The notes beneath the pieces were generated by a model. That model did not search any database, had not been told where the DNA came from, and was given only the letters and a program-made list of their open reading frames with translations. A stretch of 62,178 bases of DNA, filler included. It is 7 parts of 7 records of this genome, joined end to end, with 100 filler letters (N's around TTAATTAATTAA, not from the genome) between each part and the next. Parts side by side here need not be neighbours in the genome. Positions count along the whole stretch, not along the records: positions 56,615 to 62,178 come from SRR31156797_43211; 6 more parts are not named here. One strand, written 5' to 3'. The position numbers were made by a program, and so were the translations under genes. Below, in pieces: positions 9,873-62,178 of this stretch. Each line of letters begins with the position of its first letter. The stretch's first letter is position 1.

Positions 9873-10247
9873 ATGTCATTGTCCATATGCTTGATTGATG
9901 ATTCCAAGGTGGTTCGATCAGTGGTAAGACGCCTGCTGAAAAGCCTGATCAAGGATCGGGATTTGAATTTTTCGGAAGCTAACTGCGGGACCGCCGGATT
10001 GGAATTGCTGCGCAACAATCCATTTGACCTCGCCTTTCTTGATCTGACCATGCCGGATATGACCGGTTATGAAGTATTGGAAGCGTTGCAATCGGAAAAC
10101 GTTCCGGGGAAGATTTTTGTTTTAACCGCGGATATCCAGCCGGAATCGGAAAAGAGAGTTCGAGGGCTCGGCGCAACCGGTTACCTGACCAAGCCCTTGA
10201 AGGATGTTGATTTGAGAGCTGCGTTAAAGGAGAACGGCATCCTATGA
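9873..10247 (+). CDS. Single-domain response regulator (CheY-like)
   Basis: LIDDS, FLDLTMPDMTG, LTAD, YLTKP; start moved to ATG 9873 after GGAG. Confidence 0.9.
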   Translation: MSLSICLIDDSKVVRSVVRRLLKSLIKDRDLNFSEANCGTAGLELLRNNPFDLAFLDLTMPDMTGYEVLEALQSENVPGKIFVLTADIQPESEKRVRGLGATGYLTKPLKDVDLRAALKENGIL

Positions 10248-15716: not shown

Positions 15717-18050
15717 ATGGAGCGCCCTATGGAGTACCTGAACGAGAAGAAATATTCGTTTGTTTCCCATGAACTGTCGGAGGAAACCTTTGGAGTAGTG
15801 AGTTTTCGGGGAGTAGAGGGCCTGAGCCGATGCTACGAGTTCGAGATTGACCTGGTTTCGGCTGGTGAGAAAATCAACCTGGACGCGGTGCTGCAGGGGA
15901 CGGCGACGTTCACGATTCATCGTTCCATAGGCGACGACGTTGTATTTCACGGCATTCTGGACCACATAGAACAACGACACGCGTATAATGAATATGTCTT
16001 TTACCGGGCTCGGCTGGTTCCTAAACTCTGGTGGCTGAACCTGATTCATCACAATCAGATATTCCTTGAGCAGTCGTTGCCGGATATTATAGATGCGGTG
16101 CTCAGGGACGGCGGGATCTCACACGAAGATTTCGAATTACGCCTGCAAAAGAACTACCCGGTAATGGAGTACGTCTGCCAGTATCGTGAAAGCCACTTTG
16201 ATTTCCTGTCGCGTTGGATGGAAAAGAACGGGTTATACTACTTTTTCGAACAGGGCGACACGGCTGAAAAACTTGTCATAACCGATAGCACGCTCGCGCA
16301 TGGGGTTATGCCCCAGGGACGGAGTGTAACTTACTCCCCTCCGTCCGGTTTGGATTTTGACCACTTCGACGAGGTCCTTCAAACTTTCACCTGCCGCCAG
16401 CAGATGCTGCCAAGCGAGGTTCTGCTCAAAGATTACAATTACCGCAAACCTTCCCTGGAAATAAGCGGATCGGCCGCTGTTCTACCTCAGGGACGAGGAC
16501 AGTTCTATTACTATGGCGACCATTTCAGCACTCCGGATGAGGGAGATGCACTGGCAGAGGTCCGGGCCGAGAGTTTCCTTTGCCGCCGACGCATGTTTAC
16601 GTCACACAGCTCAGTACCCTATATCCGGGCGGGATATTGCTTTGATCTGGAAGATCATTACCAGAACGACTTTAATCTAAAATATCTGACCATAGAAGCG
16701 ACTCACGAAGGCAGTCAAGCCGGGTACCTCATCGACGGGCTCAGCCAGTCCATACCGGAGGAAAAGCGCCGTGCCTATTATCGCAATCATTTCAAGGCTA
16801 TCCCTACAGACGTACAGTTCCGGCCTGAGCAGGTCACGGAAAAGGCTCGTATCTACGGCGCCATGAATGCATGGATTGACGGTGAGGGTTCCGGACAGTT
16901 CGCGGAACTTGATGACGAGGGAAGGTACAAAGTGGTTCTGCCCTTTGATCAGTCCGGCCGCAAGAACGGAAAAGCATCCGCCTTCGTTCGTATGATACAA
17001 CCCTACGGCGGCGCCGGGCACGGCATGCATTTCCCGCTGCATAAAGGGACGGAAGTCATCCTTACTTTTATAGACGGCGACCCTGATCGACCGATCATCG
17101 CCGGCGCCGCTCCCAATCCCACGCACCCAAGCGTGGTCAACAGCGCCGAGGGAACCAAGAACGTAATCACCACGGCCAGCGGAAATCATTTTCATATGGA
17201 GGATCTACCGGGCAAGGAGCGTATTCTGATGCATGTGCCCAACCGGCAATCCTTCATCCGTATCGGCGCTCCCAATGACCCGAGCGTCGATGATCCACCG
17301 GATTCCGAAAAGAAGAATGACGACGGTGAAGCGGTAAAAAATACCGATTCAATCGTTGATAAGGATGAAAAGGAAGATAAGGAAGATAAAAAAGGCGGGG
17401 TGGTCAAGGAGGCGGCTATTATCGGCGCCGGCGCGGCTATTGCCGCCGTGGGCGAGGCGGTCAGCGGTTCCGCATCGGTTGACGCCGGTTCGGGACATCA
17501 TCCTCCTCATCCTCCAAGGCCAAAGCCTCCAGGACCTCCGGGCCCCCCGGGACCTCCGGGACCGCCAGGCCCACAGGGGCCTCCAGGAGATAAAGGACCG
17601 GATGGAGATCAGGGGCCCGACGGCGAACCGGGGCGCCAGGGTGAAGAAGGTCCCCAGGGCGAGCCCGGCGAGCAGGGGCCGCAAGGCGAGGCAGGTCAAA
17701 AGGGCGCACCAGGCGACAAGGGGCCGCAGGGAGAGCAAGGCGCTGCGGGAACTCCGGGCGTACCGGGCGCACCCGGTCCACAGGGTGAACCCGGCCCGCA
17801 GGGTGAACCAGGAGATAAGGGCCCGCAGGGCGAATCCGGAGAAAAAGGCGCGGACGGGGATAAAGGCGAAACAGGCGACAAGGGTCAGGCAGGCGACAAA
17901 GGCGAAACCGGCGATAAAGGACCGCAAGGCGAGGCAGGTCAAAACGGAGAACCAGGAGACAAGGGCCCCGAGGGTGAACGCGGTGCAACAGGCGCGCCGG
18001 GCGTACCAGGCGCTCCAGGGCCGCAGGGTGAAGCAGGATCAAAAGGCGAA
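15717..18050 (+). CDS. vgrG: Type VI secretion spike protein VgrG with collagen-like C-terminal extension (3' truncated)
   Basis: EGLSRCYEFEIDL, YVCQYRESHFDFLSRWMEKNGLYYFF, DYNYRKP, FRP, DDEGRYKV, GMHFPLHKGTEVILTFIDGDPDRPIIAGA (gp27/gp5 OB fold). Confidence 0.92.
17532..18050 (+). repeat. Collagen triple-helix repeat, 57 uninterrupted Gly-X-Y triplets plus a partial one
   Basis: GPPGPPGPPGPPGPQGPPGDK...GEAGSKGE in frame with vgrG. Confidence 0.97.
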
Positions 18051-33746: not shown

Positions 33747-35018
33747 CTATTTTTCAGGTGGCCCAAAATCCGGATTGTTTAAAAACGAATCATCACGGAG
33801 GGTTTTGATGAAGGCCAAGAGATCAGCTTTTTCTGGTGGTGTAAGCTGAATTCCACCATTGGCAATATGATGCATTAACGGATCGATCTGCGGTGTGTTT
33901 ATTAAATCGTGCGAATAAAAATCAATTACTTCATCAAGTGTGGCGAACCGGCCATCGTGCATGTAAGGCCCGGTGAGTTCGATGTTGCGCAGGGTGGTGG
34001 CTTTGTACGCACCTTTGTCCATCGGGTCGTCAGTAATGGCATACCGATCCCGGGGATCAGTAAAAAGGGAATCTTTGCCGTTGTTGTAAAATTTGTTGGT
34101 CGTGAAAAGCGGGTTGCCGAATCCGCCGTGGCAGTGGAAGCAGTCGGCGCCTTCTTCGGTTGTAAACAGCACAAAGCCGCGCAGCTCTTCCGGCGAAAGC
34201 TGCACCTCGCCGCGCATGTATTTGTCAAATTTTGAATTGGATGAAATGAGTGTCCGTACATACTGGGCTATGGCTTTTGCAATCCGGTCAGCAGTTACTT
34301 CATCTGTTCCAAATGCTTTTCTGAAAAGCTCAGGGTAGCCTTCAATATTTTTAATGGTATTCTCAACTTTTTCGGGTGAAGAATCAAATTCTGATGGATC
34401 GGAAATTACCCCTAAAACATCTGCCTCGATGGAGGGCACGCTGCCGTTCCAGCCGTATTCGCCCATATTCCAAATCAGATTGATCATGGGTAGCATGGTG
34501 TGATGGGTTGGTTTTCCGGTAACGCCAACAGGGCGATTTACTCCGGCTTCAAAGCTGTTTTCCTGGCGGTGGCAGGTGCTGCAACTCATCAATGAATCGG
34601 GGTGGGTGCGGCCCGACAGCCGACCATCGTAAAACAGGGTGCGGCCAAGTTCAATACCTTCTACCGTCATGGGGTTATCTTTTGGGATGTTGAGTAGGGT
34701 GGGGAAGCCGTAAGGAATGTCAATTTCGTAGGGAGTTGGTGTGTAAGGTTCGGGTTGGGGCGTGGGTTCGTTTGTGGAACATGAGAAGAGGATGAGGAGC
34801 GCAGCGCATAGCGCAAGAGATGAAACAATCTTGGATATTCTAATAATTCCCGGATTTTTGAGTTTGGCACTATGCGCTATGCGCTCTGCGCTATGCAAAT
34901 ATTGGGTAGTGCGTAGCGCAAGAGATGAAACAATTGTGGATATTCTTACAACTCCCGAATTATTATGTTTGGCGCTATGCGCTAAGCGCCTGGCTCTATG
35001 CGGATTTTCATTCCTCAT
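33747..35018 (-). CDS. mbnH: Di-heme cytochrome c peroxidase/MauG family lipoprotein (MbnH-like)
   Basis: LGRTLFYDGRLS, CSTCH, CFHCH, TLRNIELTGPYMHDGRF; lipobox LFSC; ATG 35018 overlaps the mbnP stop (ATGA). Confidence 0.85.
   Translation of the reverse strand: MRNENPHRARRLAHSAKHNNSGVVRISTIVSSLALRTTQYLHSAERIAHSAKLKNPGIIRISKIVSSLALCAALLILFSCSTNEPTPQPEPYTPTPYEIDIPYGFPTLLNIPKDNPMTVEGIELGRTLFYDGRLSGRTHPDSLMSCSTCHRQENSFEAGVNRPVGVTGKPTHHTMLPMINLIWNMGEYGWNGSVPSIEADVLGVISDPSEFDSSPEKVENTIKNIEGYPELFRKAFGTDEVTADRIAKAIAQYVRTLISSNSKFDKYMRGEVQLSPEELRGFVLFTTEEGADCFHCHGGFGNPLFTTNKFYNNGKDSLFTDPRDRYAITDDPMDKGAYKATTLRNIELTGPYMHDGRFATLDEVIDFYSHDLINTPQIDPLMHHIANGGIQLTPPEKADLLAFIKTLRDDSFLNNPDFGPPEK
34804..35002. 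repeat. Imperfect tandem duplication, 105-bp period, with GCGCATA/TATGCGC heptamers
   Basis: TAGCGCAAGAGATGAAACAAT at 34809 and 34914; GCGCATAGCGC (34804) is inverted to GCGCTATGCGC (34874). Confidence 0.85.
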
Positions 35019-56614: not shown

Positions 56615-56917
56615 TTTGAATAAATGACCTTGTTTACGATGTTCTTTTAAAATATAAGCATGGAGGTCATCTAACCTGTCCATAATTAAAACAGCTCCTA
56701 TATAAAATTCATCCTCATTTTTGATAAAATAAAAACGATCTCTTCTTTCTCTGTAATATCTTCCTTTGAACGGATGAAATTGTTCAACCTTATGCCAAAC
56801 AATTCCATATTCAATATTTTCAGAGAGTTTCTGAAGAAAGATATCCTCTTTATTTCCATTATTTAGTTTGTTGATTATCTCTTTTATTGATTTATCACTC
56901 ATTGACATACTGTACAA
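56615..56917 (-). CDS. Probable GNAT acetyltransferase (3' truncated)
   Basis: YFIKNE..YIGAV, LHAYILKEHRKQG acetyl-CoA motif. Confidence 0.6.
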
Positions 56918-57420
56918 ATTCTATTTCATGTAAAGTTAAAAATTAATGTACCGTTCCCATGCCCCGGCATTTCTCAAATCGAATTTTCAACCACACCGCT
57001 GCTCATGATTCGCAGTTTACCTGTGGGTTGAAACTGCTCAATCGAAAAGCCTTTGGCAATGCCCTGCAAAAGAATCCCCTGCATTTTATTCCGGGGATAC
57101 ATTTGCATTTCCCACCCGATTAAAATTCAGATTATTGTTCCTGTGCCTACGGTATCTTCATTCCGGGAAGTTTTTCCGGCCACACCCGGAACACTTCCTG
57201 CATTCAGAAACCTACGGCACCACACACAAGAGTAAGGCTTTCATTTCCTTTCAATCACCCTGTTTCCACAGACCTCACCCCAGTACATTCAAGCCCTACA
57301 CTTGTTTTTGCCTCCCTCTATTTTAGCATTGAATTTTAATGACTTTTCAAAAAAGTGCTTTTATCATTTTAGTTAATTTATAGATTCTTCTTTCCCGTAT
57401 TCCAATTTAAGTATGTGCCT

Positions 57421-57609
57421 TTCCGTGCGGCCCTTGTTGTTTCGTCGGCAAAATAAAAGCTGTGTTTTGGAGCCTGCAAGTTCAAGCCTTCGGTTTTGCA
57501 GAAAATCTCCAACCTCCTGACGTCGAATAGTATTTCCTGCAAAAAACTTGCAGGTCCAACACTCTTTTTTAACCGGGCCACAAAACAACAACGACCGACC
57601 CGATGGAAA
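57421..57609. promoter_or_regulatory. Long branched inverted repeat A (candidate ssDNA promoter or structured RNA)
   Basis: Nested stems TTGTTGTTT/AAACAACAA, CCTGCAAGTT/AACTTGCAGG, TTTGCAGAAAAT/ATTTCCTGCAAA. Confidence 0.6.
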
Positions 57610-57635
57610 GACGCATAATCTTAAACGAACGTATT

Positions 57636-57773
57636 ATGGAAAAGAAGAATAGAAATAAATATTTTGAAAATGTAAGTAAAGAAAAACAAAACTCACTCCC
57701 CTCCGGAATCCGCATAGGTGAGTTTGGAATTGTTTTTGTATTGCTAACATTATCTCAATTAGTAACCCTTTAA
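57636..57773 (+). CDS. Possible small protein (45 aa, hydrophobic C-terminus)
   Basis: MEKKNRNK...GIVFVLLTLSQLVTL*; directly after hairpin A and 10 nt before the next ORF. Confidence 0.3.
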   Translation: MEKKNRNKYFENVSKEKQNSLPSGIRIGEFGIVFVLLTLSQLVTL

Positions 57774-57783
57774 AACTGCCCGA

Positions 57784-58008
57784 ATGAGAGAAAAAGTTAA
57801 TAAATTACCCTTTAGATGGATTTTTAGAATCATCGTTATTGTACTGGCTACTTATATTACCGGATTAAGTTTTTGGGGGTGTTTATTGGCTTATATCGGA
57901 ATACTATTCCTGATTGAATTTGCCAAAAATATGCTGGTCGTAATCTTTGGAATTGCCATTGTTATTGCCGTAAGCCTTGCCATGTTTTTTGGCTTAATAG
58001 CGCTTTAA
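57784..58008 (+). CDS. Small hydrophobic membrane protein
   Basis: 74 aa, almost entirely hydrophobic. Confidence 0.6.
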   Translation: MREKVNKLPFRWIFRIIVIVLATYITGLSFWGCLLAYIGILFLIEFAKNMLVVIFGIAIVIAVSLAMFFGLIAL

Positions 58009-58142
58009 TTATTCAGGTAGATAGTTGTTAATACATCATAATGCAGAGCCGTGTAGCCCTGCTTCTTTTTTCATGAGCCTGTGCGGTTAAAAAGAAGCAA
58101 AAAACCTACTTTAATAGATTCCGGCAATAATGATTGATCACT

Positions 58143-58309
58143 TAATTTTAATAGCAAAAGTACAGGAGTACCATGGACAAACAGCAAGGTTAAATCCGCT
58201 GGATTTGATTCAGAATCTTCCTTTTAGTTTCTGATAACTAAAAGCGTATTCCGAATCAAAACCTTGCATGAAGTCCCTGTTACCCTGTGAATGGTAAGCA
58301 ATAAAATTA
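58143..58309. promoter_or_regulatory. Long branched inverted repeat B upstream of radC (candidate ssDNA promoter)
   Basis: Nested stems TAATTTTA/TAAAATTA, ACAGG/CCTGT, GCAAGGTT/AACCTTGC, TTGATTC/GAATCAA, CTTTTAGTT/AACTAAAAG. Confidence 0.6.
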
Positions 58310-58336
58310 TTGTTAAACAATTTAAAGCTTACTGTT

Positions 58337-58789
58337 ATGAAAATTGATTATTTCAAAGTTTCCGAGATTAAAGTGTCGTATACCGACAAAGTAAAAGCAT
58401 CAGAAAGACCTCAAATTAGCGCATCAAAAGATGCGGCTCATATTTTCAAACATATTTTTAAAGATTGTATTCAGCACCATGAAGAATTTTATGTAATGCT
58501 GCTAAACCGTGGCAACAAAGTTCTTGGAGTATCCTGTATATCAAAAGGTGGAATTTCCGGGACTATCGTCGATGTAAAAATTATTCTGCAACTGGCTTTA
58601 AAAGCAAATGCCTCTTCATTGATTGTTTCTCATAATCACCCGAGTGGTAACCTCACCGCCAGTGCGGCTGATGTAAAAATTACTGAAAAACTTAAAAACG
58701 CATGTCAGTTGATTGATCTAAGCCTTCTGGACCATCTGATCGTTACTGATGAAAGCTATCTGAGTTTTGCTGATGATGGATTGTTCTAA
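58337..58789 (+). CDS. radC: RadC-like JAB domain protein of a mobile element
   Basis: EEFYVMLLN, GGISGTIVD, HNHPSG...S..D, LLDHLIV. Confidence 0.92.
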   Translation: MKIDYFKVSEIKVSYTDKVKASERPQISASKDAAHIFKHIFKDCIQHHEEFYVMLLNRGNKVLGVSCISKGGISGTIVDVKIILQLALKANASSLIVSHNHPSGNLTASAADVKITEKLKNACQLIDLSLLDHLIVTDESYLSFADDGLF

Positions 58790-58806
58790 ATCCATTTCAT
58801 GAAATG

Positions 58807-58845
58807 AAAACAAGGGCTACCCGATGCGGGTAGCCCTTGTTTTTT
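58807..58845. terminator. Bidirectional rho-independent terminator between radC and traN
   Basis: AAAACAAGGGCTACCCG-ATG-CGGGTAGCCCTTGTTTT perfect stem. Confidence 0.9.
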
Positions 58846-58861
58846 GTGTTCTATTTCTAAC

Positions 58862-59743
58862 TTATATTCTCCCGACATTTATCGCTTTTACCAGGTCTTT
58901 GTTTTTTACGATAAAACGTTGATGCCGCCCCCCGTTCTTTTCAAATAGCTCAATGATCAATTGTTTCTTGTCAGGGATAGTAAATGATTCGAAAACAAAA
59001 ACAGTTGCTTCAGTAGAACTGCCATCAATAGTAGTAACGTTATTAAAAGCACAAATCGGTTTTATAACCGTCTCCTGAATGGCTGTTCTTTTGGCCACTT
59101 TCTTGTCCACTATTTTAAAGTTTAGAAAATCAACTTCGAATGGAATATCAGTAGTGTTTTCCAGCTCCGTGCGAAAGTAGATCAATCCATTCTGACTGTA
59201 CAGGCCGGTTAAAGAGTATTCAATTCCGAACTGTTTGCTATTGATGTTTTTAACGTGCTTTTTCCTGACGTTATAAATTTTCTCCATAGCCAACCGGATG
59301 TCCTGTGGTGTTTTGTTTCCGAGTTCGGAAAGCTGAATCTCCACCGAGTTGTTCGGCTGGTTGCCCAATTTGTATTCATGCAAAAAATCTTTCATTTCGA
59401 TATTCAACTTCGCAGGATTTTCGGCATAGTTGACAATGAATGAATAAAAACTGCCCTCGTCGGTTATCACGGAAAAATTAGTTTCGTCTGAAAAATCTTT
59501 CACAGAAGCTTTTACCCGGACCACATTTTCAGCGCCGTCGGCCTTGCCGGCAATAATATTCGATGAGCCAAGATCGATATAGGATATGGCTGCCGGGAAT
59601 AGAATATGGACAGTTTTATTGTAGGTAACCTCGATGTGGTAGGATGAAATCACCCGGTCTTTGGAAATGACTTTGGTGTATTGATTTTGAGCAAAAAGTG
59701 AAAGGCTGCTCATTAGTAATATGGTTATTAATAATTGTTTCAT
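58862..59743 (-). CDS. traN: Conjugative transposon TraN
   Basis: KTVHILFP, YIDLGS, ENVVRVKA, ETNFSVIT, DKKVAKRTAIQE, EKNGGRHQ. Confidence 0.93.
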   Translation of the reverse strand: MKQLLITILLMSSLSLFAQNQYTKVISKDRVISSYHIEVTYNKTVHILFPAAISYIDLGSSNIIAGKADGAENVVRVKASVKDFSDETNFSVITDEGSFYSFIVNYAENPAKLNIEMKDFLHEYKLGNQPNNSVEIQLSELGNKTPQDIRLAMEKIYNVRKKHVKNINSKQFGIEYSLTGLYSQNGLIYFRTELENTTDIPFEVDFLNFKIVDKKVAKRTAIQETVIKPICAFNNVTTIDGSSTEATVFVFESFTIPDKKQLIIELFEKNGGRHQRFIVKNKDLVKAINVGRI

Positions 59744-59772
59744 GATGATCTTTTTAAATGATGAATTGTATT

Positions 59773-61056
59773 TTATTTGATGGGCATCAGCAATATCCGG
59801 TGCCCTGCTTTTAAGGTAACTTTTGTGGTTCTGAGTTTCTTGGAAACATACTGCGATGTACCTTGTATAAAACTTCGTCCCACATCGGCTGCCAGTTGTT
59901 CGCCTGCGGTAGTTCCCTGATTGATGCTAATACTCGTTCCGGCATCGCGTCCCATGGTGGCAGTAATTTCCTTAAAAGCACTTACCTCAACCGAACCGGG
60001 AATAAACAAACCAGGTTGTCCGTCGGTGTCATAAGCTGTGAGTTGCACCGGGGTGATATTTCCGTTTTGTTCCAGCGAATTGATAAAAATATGTAAGCGT
60101 TCTCCCTGGAGCCGGGCAATACCCGTGATCAAAGCATTCTTTTGAAAGTGGAGCCCACCGGTTTCGATGGCTTCAAGTAATCGTAGCTGCACATTTTGTC
60201 CGTTAACCAGTTTTTGAGTGCTGTTTACACAGGCATTAATAGTGTTCCGTTCCGTGGTTTCCGGCTTGTCTTCTGCTGATATAAATGAATAGTTCCGGGG
60301 ATGTGAAACCTGCTTCAATAACAATGAATCGGAAACCGTTTGATGTAATGCCGTCGTTGTATTTTTTGTTGAAACGACTACCGGCTTGACGATCTCCTCG
60401 TCTTCATGCGACCTTACTGACTGACTGGTTTCAGCAACCGACAGATTTGGTTGTACTGGCGCATTCTTTGGCATATATTTAGCCGCCATCTGGTACGATT
60501 TTTCCATTAACAGCAGTTGCTCGTCAATACTGTTGTCTTGCTCCTTTTCAGCCAGTTGCTGCTTCAAAGCTTCAAGCTCTGCTTTTAGCTTTTCGTTTTC
60601 AGGATTCGCTTTTGGTTTTTCGTAAAAGCTGCCCAAGGTGTTATTAATATTGTTATAAGCCGAAGCAGAACTTTGTATCGCCCGTTTGGGCTGCTGGCTT
60701 CCCGAATATTTTTCCGACAAACTATTTTCTGCTTTTGCAGAAGAAAGTAAATCAAACTTTTCCGGTTCGTCCTTTTTAATCATTGACGAAAACTCATCCA
60801 GCGAACGCACAGGTTTTTGCTGAAAAAGTGCTGCCTGGTCGAAGGCGTTGATTTTATCCTTCAGCAGATCCTCTTCCTGCGGTAATGGAATTTCTGTATT
60901 TAATCCATTAACTGTCTTGTTATCCTCTTTGTCCGATGGCTTAAAAATCAGCCACATACTTGCCCCAAAAACAAGGGACATCAAAGCAAATACGGCGTAC
61001 TTTTTAAGTACCTGCTTTTGCCCCGGTTTCAGGAGTGTTTTATTGTTTTTGTCCAT
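59773..61056 (-). CDS. traM: Conjugative transposon TraM (VirB10-like)
   Basis: WLIFKP, LMEKSYQMAAKYMP, LRLLE, YDTDGQPGLFIPGS, KVTLKAG. Confidence 0.92.
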   Translation of the reverse strand: MDKNNKTLLKPGQKQVLKKYAVFALMSLVFGASMWLIFKPSDKEDNKTVNGLNTEIPLPQEEDLLKDKINAFDQAALFQQKPVRSLDEFSSMIKKDEPEKFDLLSSAKAENSLSEKYSGSQQPKRAIQSSASAYNNINNTLGSFYEKPKANPENEKLKAELEALKQQLAEKEQDNSIDEQLLLMEKSYQMAAKYMPKNAPVQPNLSVAETSQSVRSHEDEEIVKPVVVSTKNTTTALHQTVSDSLLLKQVSHPRNYSFISAEDKPETTERNTINACVNSTQKLVNGQNVQLRLLEAIETGGLHFQKNALITGIARLQGERLHIFINSLEQNGNITPVQLTAYDTDGQPGLFIPGSVEVSAFKEITATMGRDAGTSISINQGTTAGEQLAADVGRSFIQGTSQYVSKKLRTTKVTLKAGHRILLMPIK

Positions 61057-61306
61057 CTGTTAAATCTTTTAAATGATAATTGATACTGTCTTGTGGGAAG
61101 TCAAGTGGAGTGATGTGTTCAATCTGAAACAGGCCTTTTACTTCCTGATCACGGAACGAATCCCAAAGAACAAGAGCAAAAAGAAGTGTAAACAAAAAGC
61201 ACATCCCCAGAACCACCATTCTTCGTTTTTTCTCAGGAATGCTGTCACAACTCCCTTTGAGTTTTTCACGGCTAAGCCGTTTGAACTCCGAAAATCCATT
61301 TCTCAT
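61040..61306 (-). CDS. TraL-like small membrane protein
   Basis: Between traK and traM; one TM segment, IEHI motif. Confidence 0.7.
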   Translation of the reverse strand: MRNGFSEFKRLSREKLKGSCDSIPEKKRRMVVLGMCFLFTLLFALVLWDSFRDQEVKGLFQIEHITPLDFPQDSINYHLKDLTDGQKQ

Positions 61307-61310
61307 GGCT

Positions 61311-61934
61311 CTACCTTGTTACCGTTTGAATATCGTTGTTCTGTACTACCTCAAAGTTCTCCACGGTAAAACCATGTGGATTATTATCGCTGCGAACTGA
61401 GTTGATAAGCGTGCATCTTGTCACAAGGTTCCGCTCCGTGATATTGCTTTCGCGGATAATCAGCTGACGGGCGTAAGTTGATGCAGTATAAGGATAGTTC
61501 ATAAAGTCAACCACTACACTATCCACTTGCAACGTTTGGTTGATATTTGCTGATATGATCCGGTTGAAATAGCCTTTCTCCAACAGGTCTTTGTAATAGG
61601 TGTACACGCTTTTATCAGCCAGAAACATGGCCCGGTCAATGTTGGATTCAATGGCATTTTTATCGGGCGAAAGCGTAAAAAACAACTCATGAAAACGCCG
61701 GATATGTTCCCGCGCCTCTACTGGACGGTTTTGTGCCAAATCCTGGGAAAGGGCAAGAATCAGGGATTTTCCTTTGTCCAGGACATAAATCTTTTGTCGT
61801 TGCTTTTCAGCATAACTGTAGGCACTAAACACCGAATATCCGCTAATACCAGCGCAAAGGACAATAAACACGATCCCAAAGAAACGGATCTGCCTGAAGC
61901 TTGTTTCAATATTTTTTAATGATTTAAATTCCAT
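61311..61934 (-). CDS. traK: Conjugative transposon TraK
   Basis: MEFKSLKNIETSF, NRPVEAREH, FHELFFTLSPD, RSDNNPHGF. Confidence 0.95.
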   Translation of the reverse strand: MEFKSLKNIETSFRQIRFFGIVFIVLCAGISGYSVFSAYSYAEKQRQKIYVLDKGKSLILALSQDLAQNRPVEAREHIRRFHELFFTLSPDKNAIESNIDRAMFLADKSVYTYYKDLLEKGYFNRIISANINQTLQVDSVVVDFMNYPYTASTYARQLIIRESNITERNLVTRCTLINSVRSDNNPHGFTVENFEVVQNNDIQTVTR

Positions 61935-61945
61935 AATTTTTTGAT

Positions 61946-62176
61946 TTACTTTTTTAATAGTTTTCCGGTCATATTGCCTGCTGATGCACCGGCAACACCT
62001 GCTGCCATCGAAGCTGTTTTCCCGGCTGACGATGTCACATTCTTTCCATAGTTACCCATACCACCTGCCATGATGATCCATCCGGCAACAGTTGGGATAG
62101 TGAAATACCCGATAATGCCAATAATCATAAATACAATGTAAACGCCGTTGGATGCTTCGACCGAATAGTTCGCATC
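61946..62176 (-). CDS. traJ: Conjugative transposon TraJ (VirB6-like), C-terminal fragment
   Basis: VYIVFMIIGIIGYFTIPTVAGWII..GG; open to window end; directly upstream of traK. Confidence 0.88.
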   Translation of the reverse strand, partial: DANYSVEASNGVYIVFMIIGIIGYFTIPTVAGWIIMAGGMGNYGKNVTSSAGKTASMAAGVAGASAGNMTGKLLKK

Positions 62177-62178
62177 GG

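Follow-up and report, generated by a model that had tools for sequence, protein, structure and literature searches.

Fold-back hairpins as candidate single-stranded-DNA promoters of Bacteroidota mobile elements

Two hairpins beside transfer genes

The window considered here, meaning the whole 62,178-nucleotide (nt) stretch of DNA that was analysed, consists of seven contigs joined by linkers, and the last of these (56615-62178) carries two long hairpins, A (57421-57609) and B (58143-58309), next to transfer (tra) genes of the CTnDOT type. The two belong to a real, widespread and strand-specific family of fold-back DNA elements. Judging from its boxes and orientation, the family is likely to consist of single-stranded-DNA (ssDNA) promoters for the Bacteroidota primary sigma factor, Frpo-like in kind and not homologues of Frpo.

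Both hairpins lie where the original prediction had placed them, with every listed feature of their common design, including TTG-N22-TACTTTTG in B and TTG-N20-TTATTTTG in A on the minus strand, which DNA folding and a covariance model (R1, below) identify as the folding strand of each. Folded as DNA, the minus strand of A reaches -43.2 kcal/mol (z -5.7, 0 of 200 shuffles as good) and the plus strand -32.2 kcal/mol (z -3.1, 1 of 200); for B, a divergent member kept in seven related loci, the values are -32.0 kcal/mol (z -7.6, 0 of 200) and -26.8 kcal/mol (z -5.6, 0 of 200). In A, the -7 box TTATTTTG (57449-57456, minus) has one mismatch, at the conserved A of TAnnTTTG, and is partly open in the predicted fold (unpaired probability 0.27-0.92). 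The -33 TTG (57477-57479, minus) stands 20 nt upstream of the box and pairs with CAA of the opposite arm, while the side hairpin at the three-way junction (57484-57496, minus) has a GAA loop closed by a C-G pair, two Watson-Crick pairs adjoining the loop. In B, the -7 box TACTTTTG (58155-58162, minus) sits inside a 6x9-nt internal loop with its first T paired; unpaired probability is 0.73-0.93 from A to T, 0.06 for the first T and 0.25 for the last G, and the box TA.TTTTG is kept in seven of eight aligned copies, L004 having a 1-nt deletion. The -33 TTG of B (58185-58187, minus) is separated from the box by 22 nt on its own arm and 21 nt on the template arm, and the side hairpin (58192-58206, minus) carries a minus-strand AGC loop, not GNA. 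From mapped Bacteroides thetaiotaomicron starts and the pairing, plus-strand transcription is predicted to begin at 57578-57583 in A (57582-57583 in the family pairing register) and at 58303-58304 in B, 33-34 nt before the radC ATG.

Along the contig, a partial minus-strand gene is followed by A, two small open reading frames (ORFs), a terminator-like stem, B, radC, a two-way terminator-like hairpin and the tra genes. The first ORF after A (57636-57773, plus, 45 amino acids [aa]) most likely starts at 57636, the start common to six of six aligned relatives; it falls in no family, its 56-aa form has no Pfam match, and PADLOC gives none either. The second, a hydrophobic 74-aa ORF (57784-58008, plus), likewise has no family and no PADLOC match and is kept in L001 and L003. 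A stem-loop at 58060-58099 (plus), 79-91% identical across seven related loci, folds like a terminator and may act as one between these ORFs and B. Behind B lies a stand-alone RadC/JAB-domain gene of 150 aa (58337-58789, plus; PF04002, E 5.8e-39), and the interval between radC and traN folds into the two-way terminator-like hairpin (58801-58851). The CTnDOT-type transfer genes traN (DUF4138), traM, traL, a traK-like gene and traJ, the last cut by the window end (58862-62178), are all on the minus strand and converge with radC; relatives whose RadC is 97-98% identical have the same gene order within a CTnDOT-type element. The sole plus-strand TAnnTTTG within 56901-58340 lies at 57098, 540 nt before the first ORF, and is kept in two of six aligned relatives, the window counted. 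At 39.6%, the G+C content of this contig is the lowest of the seven, the other six having 41.9-53.4%, so that a Bacteroidota host is not implied for those six. To the left of A, the interval 56950-57340 looks non-coding, is 67-86% identical in eight related loci and folds better as minus strand (-60.8 vs -49.2), with no Rfam match.

A fold-back family with a preferred strand

Copies were collected with a core pattern from which the two promoter boxes are omitted; it selects A-type copies, B-type copies being therefore under-represented in the family statistics. The pattern yields 49 viral loci and at least 121 genome loci, 50 of which were taken on to whole-genome searches; among the matches listed, the 80 loci lie in Bacteroidota of several classes, except for five in Clostridia-titled assemblies. 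The covariance model R1 was built from 39 A-type copies with B excluded. It nevertheless finds B at full length (55.5 bits, E 4.5e-8), so that A and B are one family, as originally proposed; A itself, part of the training set, scores 100 bits at 57435-57590. R1 has matches in 34 of 41 genomes of a genus sample and in 7 of 121 of a phylum sample, the centre genome being counted in each, with up to 17 matches in a single genome. By blastn, A-like sequence occurs in eight Bacteroidales plasmid records, and in the three inspected the hairpin lies upstream of a PcfK-PcfJ operon converging on tra.

Copies L110, L121, L130, L138 and L153 are those in Clostridia- or Oscillospiraceae-titled assemblies; three of them (L110, L130 and L153) adjoin Bacteroides-type PcfK or tra genes. 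Mis-binning is the likely explanation, cross-phylum transfer being the alternative.

The analysis of the fold draws on 61 non-redundant copies out of 140, 60 of which have a TTG partner, 48 a confident box pairing, and 54 a place in the bubble classes used below. Their conserved shape is a rod with a three-way junction and a AATACTACC/GGAGATT apex. At the core pairs 94.9% of cells are paired, slid controls being far lower, and 96 cells are changed on both sides against 30.7 in shuffles (0 of 500), in an alignment whose related copies are not independent. The spacer stem, aligned by motif anchors and not by folding, exceeds the shuffled mean at eight of eight positions. Core and spacer stem thus both show the covariation expected of a selected fold.

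Strand preference emerges from several counts. In a strand-neutral alignment of the arms, G·T oppositions number 259 vs 113 A·C, the former prevailing in 47 copies, the latter in seven, with seven tied; the outer arms alone, which lie outside the search pattern, give 178 vs 96, and A itself 7 vs 1. In 56 of 61 copies the folding strand gives the more stable structure. Triloops of the form cGNAg on stems of at least 3 base pairs occur 31 times on the folding strand vs 0 on the opposite strand, with the middle base free (T11/C10/A8/G2). GNA triloops are DNA-specific stabilisers, a property for which a literature search found no paper. An RNA UNCG loop has a complement with the same letters as the DNA triloop, and for this reason the two registers were compared: the triloop register is the longer at 46 of 56 sites and the shorter at six. 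These biases suggest that the fold is probably under selection on one strand, as DNA rather than RNA.

The alternative that either strand encodes a structured RNA, such as a 6S-kind sigma decoy or a leader, can draw on the long rod with its internal loop, on the inability of covariation to separate RNA from DNA, on GNRA tetraloops (17 per strand) and on one RNA-library contig with a related half-hairpin at depth 544, whose strand and ends are not readable. It is very improbable, given that the GNA triloops are confined to one strand and outrun the UNCG register, that the strand preferred for folding runs antisense to the neighbouring gene and that the non-template arm carries an exact DNA promoter consensus. 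Nor does Rfam 15 at gathering score match anything in the window or in 16 homologous loci. Eleven sub-threshold Rfam matches, none spanning a whole hairpin, were judged to be chance.

Promoter boxes carried by the fold

The Bacteroides promoter consensus has TAnnTTTG at -7 and TTTG at -33, according to the available parts of PMC7366714; the accessible portion of its supplement file 3 includes among mapped B. thetaiotaomicron promoters TACCTTTGC and TTG-N20-TATTTTTG, and places starts 5-6 nt after the G of the box. In the hairpin family, the far arm of the folding strand corresponds to the non-template strand and bears both TTG and TAnnTTTG; the template is the near arm, which runs into the adjacent gene. 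A search 14-61 nt downstream of TTG finds a perfect TAnnTTTG on the far arm of 50 of 60 copies; on the sense arm, a search over 14-29 nt finds it in 0 of 60. Position by position (n = 48), the box is kept as T47 A46 T47 T48 T43 G48, and the facing arm matches at its ends only (T34 A7 T10 T14 T18 G47); with the box conserved and the facing arm diverged, sequence constraint falls on the non-template arm and leaves the opposite arm free. Genes behind the hairpin seldom have a promoter box of their own: a sense-strand box occurs within 300 nt of 1 of 25 such genes, vs 116 of 326 other genes.

Spacing also points to the folded form. The distance from TTG to the G of the box ranges over 24-46 nt on the box arm and 22-30 nt on the template arm, and 11 copies have a linear TTG-to-box spacer of 30-40 nt, which means that they are not promoters as linear DNA. 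Folding loops the surplus out, giving a spacer of 19-20 nt in 7 of the 11, with four unresolved. On these modelled folds, the long-spacer copies make the most telling case for a fold-dependent function, and they would represent promoters that cannot exist in duplex DNA.

In the mechanism we favour, the element would enter the recipient single-stranded and its minus strand would fold; host RNA polymerase would bind the -33 and -7 boxes of the folded strand, the latter already unpaired or easily unslipped, and would transcribe the near arm into radC from B and into the two small ORFs from A. Second-strand synthesis would then destroy the fold and the genes would go quiet, the sense strand being boxless. 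The transcript may in addition serve as primer for the second strand, a role reported for Frpo. The pre-melted bubble of the original prediction agrees with the predicted fold of B, whose box is open, and less well with the family: among 54 predicted folds the box is mostly open in 17, slip-paired with a bulge just upstream in 30, and paired with no bulge in seven.

Rolling-circle plasmids and ICEBs1 have single-strand origins (sso) primed by RNA polymerase, likewise strand-specific folded DNA read by the host enzyme. The hairpins could be origins of this kind only, recruiting RNA polymerase or primase for a second-strand primer and making no mRNA. Strand and direction would be the same as for a promoter, phage copies could serve replication, and Frpo is reported to do both, in the accessible text of PMC12672017. 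Such a restricted role is nonetheless quite unlikely. Unlike sso, family copies stand directly before an ORF, have a full promoter consensus and are many per element: one element has eight hits in L252/L253 and five in L251, each at most a few hundred bases ahead of a gene that has the folding strand as its template. The scarcity of sense-strand boxes in the genes behind the hairpins and the terminator-like hairpin closing each unit in the window also speak for transcription.

The closest known counterparts of the proposed promoters are Frpo1/Frpo2 of F and ssi1-3 of ColIb-P9/pESBL, the class 1 ssDNA promoters (Masai and Arai 1997, as related in the available text of PMC9849209 and PMC12672017). 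Like these, the hairpins are long intergenic stem-loops that would rebuild host promoter boxes in single-stranded form, placed upstream of ssb, ardA and other genes of a conjugative element, often in several copies. Unlike these, they have Bacteroidota -33/-7 boxes (TTG, TAnnTTTG) instead of sigma70 -35/-10 boxes, a conserved three-way junction, the apex described above and looped-out spacer inserts; they lie beyond the tra operon, sometimes on the lagging side, and occur in integrative and conjugative elements (ICEs), nested mobilisable elements, tailed phages and relaxase-less islands. No sequence similarity links the two groups: blastn of A against 20,395 Escherichia coli records (E<=1) gives no match, and PLSDB matches are exclusively Bacteroidales (8 of 8 and 14 of 14 records). 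The class 2/3 hairpins of pESBL/F (PMC12672017) and the Frpo'/Frpo* of Samuel et al. 2024 (PMC11541004) are, as far as the accessible text goes, non-Frpo hairpins with the same assigned role and thus, being unrelated to Frpo, indicate that the device arose more than once. They were found through the sigma70 consensus TTGACA/TATAAT, where the present family has other boxes, and class 2/3 promoters have mapped starts, where those of the present family are predicted only.

No description of a Bacteroidota ssDNA promoter was found in the literature covered, which includes the available parts of PMC11541004 (the word 'Bacteroid' is absent from its main text), PMC12672017, PMC9849209 and PMC12282955 and extends thinly to subscription journals. 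Two conserved imperfect dyad motifs or hairpins upstream of five PvCTn operons of Bacteroidales conjugative transposons (CTns) are reported in the accessible part of PMC11005914, where they are read as regulator sites in double-stranded DNA (dsDNA) or as terminators; compared by description only, they may include part of this family.

RNA data are sparse. Three raw RNA-read runs have no reads over the hairpin or operon except for one, of low identity, and the element is absent there; one RNA contig set has depth 2-7 over the first genes, its strand not readable, and is evidence neither way. No hairpin-type start is recognised in 15 of 15 GACCTTG and 39 of 51 GAACTTG rows of file 3 of PMC7366714, a table that also counts neither way because the presence of copies in that strain is not established. 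Eleven of the 20 supplement files of PMC10994844 were scanned, with 0 matches. The bases upstream of the BT_2229 start mapped at 2797295 (same file 3, in the rows available) resemble the L150 far arm, perhaps by chance. At L122:9206-9508, about 420 nt to the left of a hairpin, lies a 307-nt contig of depth 1063 in one RNA library, possibly a small RNA.

Transferred strand, arrival genes and copies outside conjugation

The orientation of the hairpins agrees with that of nearby relaxases. Among the 129 hits in the 50 genomes, 45 have a MOBP relaxase at a distance of 50 kb or less, and 42 of the 45 (30 of 33 loci) are on the relaxase template strand; in the genus sample, which is independent of the pattern, all 50 hits near MobB (36 of 36 loci) are so placed, in a count that omits 11 rows of the centre genome and 25 unlisted matches. 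The nominal p-values, 1.4e-6 and 2.9e-11, are overstated, since related elements are not independent. Two of the three exceptions lie in nested mobilisable elements and agree with their own MobC, and the third agrees with its tra genes. Neighbouring copies are co-oriented (23 of 23). Where tra is in view (21 copies), the closest tra gene is in 18 cases encoded by the folding strand and situated on that strand's 5' side. With oriT, the origin of transfer, located between mob and tra (PMC3809561) and the relaxase gene entering the recipient last (PMC11541004), both according to the accessible text, the folding strand would probably be the transferred strand, provided that the relaxase does enter last. 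The compact element L135, with the same layout of traG to traN followed by the operon, obeys the relaxase-strand rule. The fold-back promoter of the original prediction has come through the covariation, Rfam and relaxase-strand tests, although several of its details lack support. Copies L248:2630-2830, L249:2799-2999 and L053:17244-17404 lie in nested mobilisable elements and are oriented to their own mobilisation genes.

Placement in the leading region, as first proposed, fits loosely. The leading side is the commoner (37 of 42 in the first sample, 36 of 50 in the genus sample), but the copies are set past the entire tra operon, with the relaxase about 13-42 kb away; measured from mobB, the distances are 15-38 kb, with a median of 21 kb.

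The CTnDOT-type elements have a conserved oriT cassette (L227:26400-26700, L228-L247), in which a CGACTTCGGAG stem-loop about 30-110 nt from mobA, found in 16 of 22 loci, is followed by a GCAAG...CTTGC hairpin and then two small hairpins. Of these hairpins the middle one looks like the family's CAAG/CTTG stem, and the family might accordingly be read as secondary relaxosome sites; the oriT regions with the conserved motif have their GCAAG...CTTGC hairpin on the same strand. This is extremely unlikely to be the explanation: in 20 loci no oriT region scores better than E 0.5 with R1, only 24 of 60 copies have C as the base following TT(G/T), and the loop motif CGACTTCGGAG is absent from the family alignment. 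A candidate RP4-like nick in L227, CATCTTGC following an inverted repeat, was discarded on the strand counts given below; a literature search for the nick site of these elements found none.

The genes templated by the folding strand include ArdA, SSB, RadC, PcfK/PcfJ, DUF932, LPD11, DUF1281_C, DUF4120, DUF4121, DUF4326 and DUF6943, and wherever radC (15 of 15), PcfK (26 of 26) or PcfJ (23 of 23) lies nearby, it has the folding strand as its template. In the available text of PMC5512222, a nucleic-acid-processing role of RadC is a hypothesis, and it is proposed that LPD domains help in early invasion. 'Arrival genes' may be a fair label; the anti-defence role that had been proposed for radC and the small ORFs lacks support at this locus, none of the 12 tested proteins matching PADLOC.

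Several observations weigh against the promoter interpretation. Many hits cannot be tied to a relaxase: 80 of the 129 have none on their contig and four more lie over 50 kb away, the corresponding figures for the 139 hits of the genus sample being 54 and 35, and the relaxase of the window's own element falls outside the window. In the genus sample 14 of 50 copies are on the lagging side, and an RP4-like nick beside an inverted repeat is on the expected strand in 1 of 22 oriT regions and on the other strand in four. The box is predicted to be open in no more than 17 of 54 folds, and the -33 TTG reads TTT in 14 of 60 copies. B has no wobble bias (G·T:A·C 1:1) and no GNA loop. The box of A does not have the A kept by 46 of 48 family copies, and the close relatives L004, L005 and L007 carry TACCTTTG at its position; A may for these reasons be a weakened copy and, on its box sequence, is probably a weaker promoter than B. 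Nineteen of the 50 genomes with copies lack a match to the relaxase family PF03432, and among 44 viral records with copies a tape-measure protein is found in 14 and a relaxase in three; dsDNA phages have no obvious single-stranded entry. Finally, the linear spacer is 17-24 nt in most copies, which could therefore work as normal promoters in duplex form and direct transcription away from the gene.

This last point underlies the proposal that the far arm is an ordinary outward promoter and the inverted repeat a regulator-binding site. TTG-N17-24-TAnnTTTG matches mapped promoters, a divergent gene lies to the left of A in the window, and regulator binding has been proposed for the two dyad motifs of the five CTn operons in the accessible part of PMC11005914. 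We consider it improbable, since it leaves aside the 11 copies with 30-40-nt linear spacers, the pairing of the whole rod, which covaries though its sequence varies, and strand-specific wobbles and triloops that would be meaningless in duplex DNA.

The original prediction had confined the hairpins to conjugative elements, and this does not hold: the family is not limited to self-transmissible elements. In phages, the strand that carries the hairpin is the template of the tape-measure gene in 12 of 14 records, and in two phage regions the hairpin is upstream of radC. Of the 19 PF03432-negative genomes, in assemblies that may be incomplete, two have a coupling-protein match and two a MOBV match, one of the latter 10 kb from two copies that are again in template orientation. 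A recurrent island of Flavobacteriia and Cytophagia (L105, L120, L136, L148, L158, L168, L175 and L179, at about position 10000, or about 2300 in L175) has the hairpin, a DUF6943 gene and then, convergent, a DUF5675 gene and a gene of about 250 aa with no known family. DUF5675 is matched in six of the eight loci, DUF6266 occurs in others, and most island genomes have no PF03432, coupling-protein or MOBV match. The long-spacer copies sit in these DUF6943/DUF5675 islands. ESM Atlas places two island proteins in unnamed Bacteroidota clusters only.

Phage copies, with their orientation to the tape-measure gene and their position before radC, and copies in genomes with no detectable relaxase or coupling protein would suit a fold-dependent promoter triggered otherwise than by conjugative entry, through supercoil extrusion, replication, recombination or repair in a resident element or phage. 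As an account of the whole family this has a low probability, given that copies with a relaxase nearby lie almost without exception on its template strand, that wobble and triloop biases favour a single strand only, and that the many arm mismatches would make extrusion from duplex DNA costly. A broader proposal, which we hold tentatively and with well under even confidence, is a portable ssDNA-sensor promoter across Bacteroidota mobile DNA, its invariant apex and three-way junction read by a dedicated host or element factor, with phages and islands becoming single-stranded by an unrecognised route; the phage copies and the island copies, the latter with spacers that fit only when folded, would then imply that those elements pass through a single-stranded state.

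The demonstrated ssDNA promoters belong to enterobacterial plasmids, and the screens in print sought sigma70 boxes. If the favoured interpretation of the family as Bacteroidota ssDNA promoters is true, such a device has had a further origin in the phylum whose conjugative transposons disseminate tetQ in the gut. The model would then also point to the strand that is probably transferred and supply a list of arrival-expressed genes, many with no known function, as candidates for new anti-defence proteins.

At L060 / L257:13783-19981 (record G055, with direct terminal repeats) the hairpin is flanked by a reverse-transcriptase gene, a small neighbour and a large upstream gene, an arrangement that looks like a diversity-generating retroelement; three small genes lie on the hairpin's other side, before a tape-measure gene. 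Elsewhere in the window, 34803-35008 holds two repeats of about 101 nt, 80% alike, with palindromic GCGCTATGCGC-type ends, resembling repetitive extragenic palindromic (REP) or miniature inverted-repeat transposable (MITE) elements, and 17604-18050 has repeats of 18-nt period that probably encode a repetitive protein.

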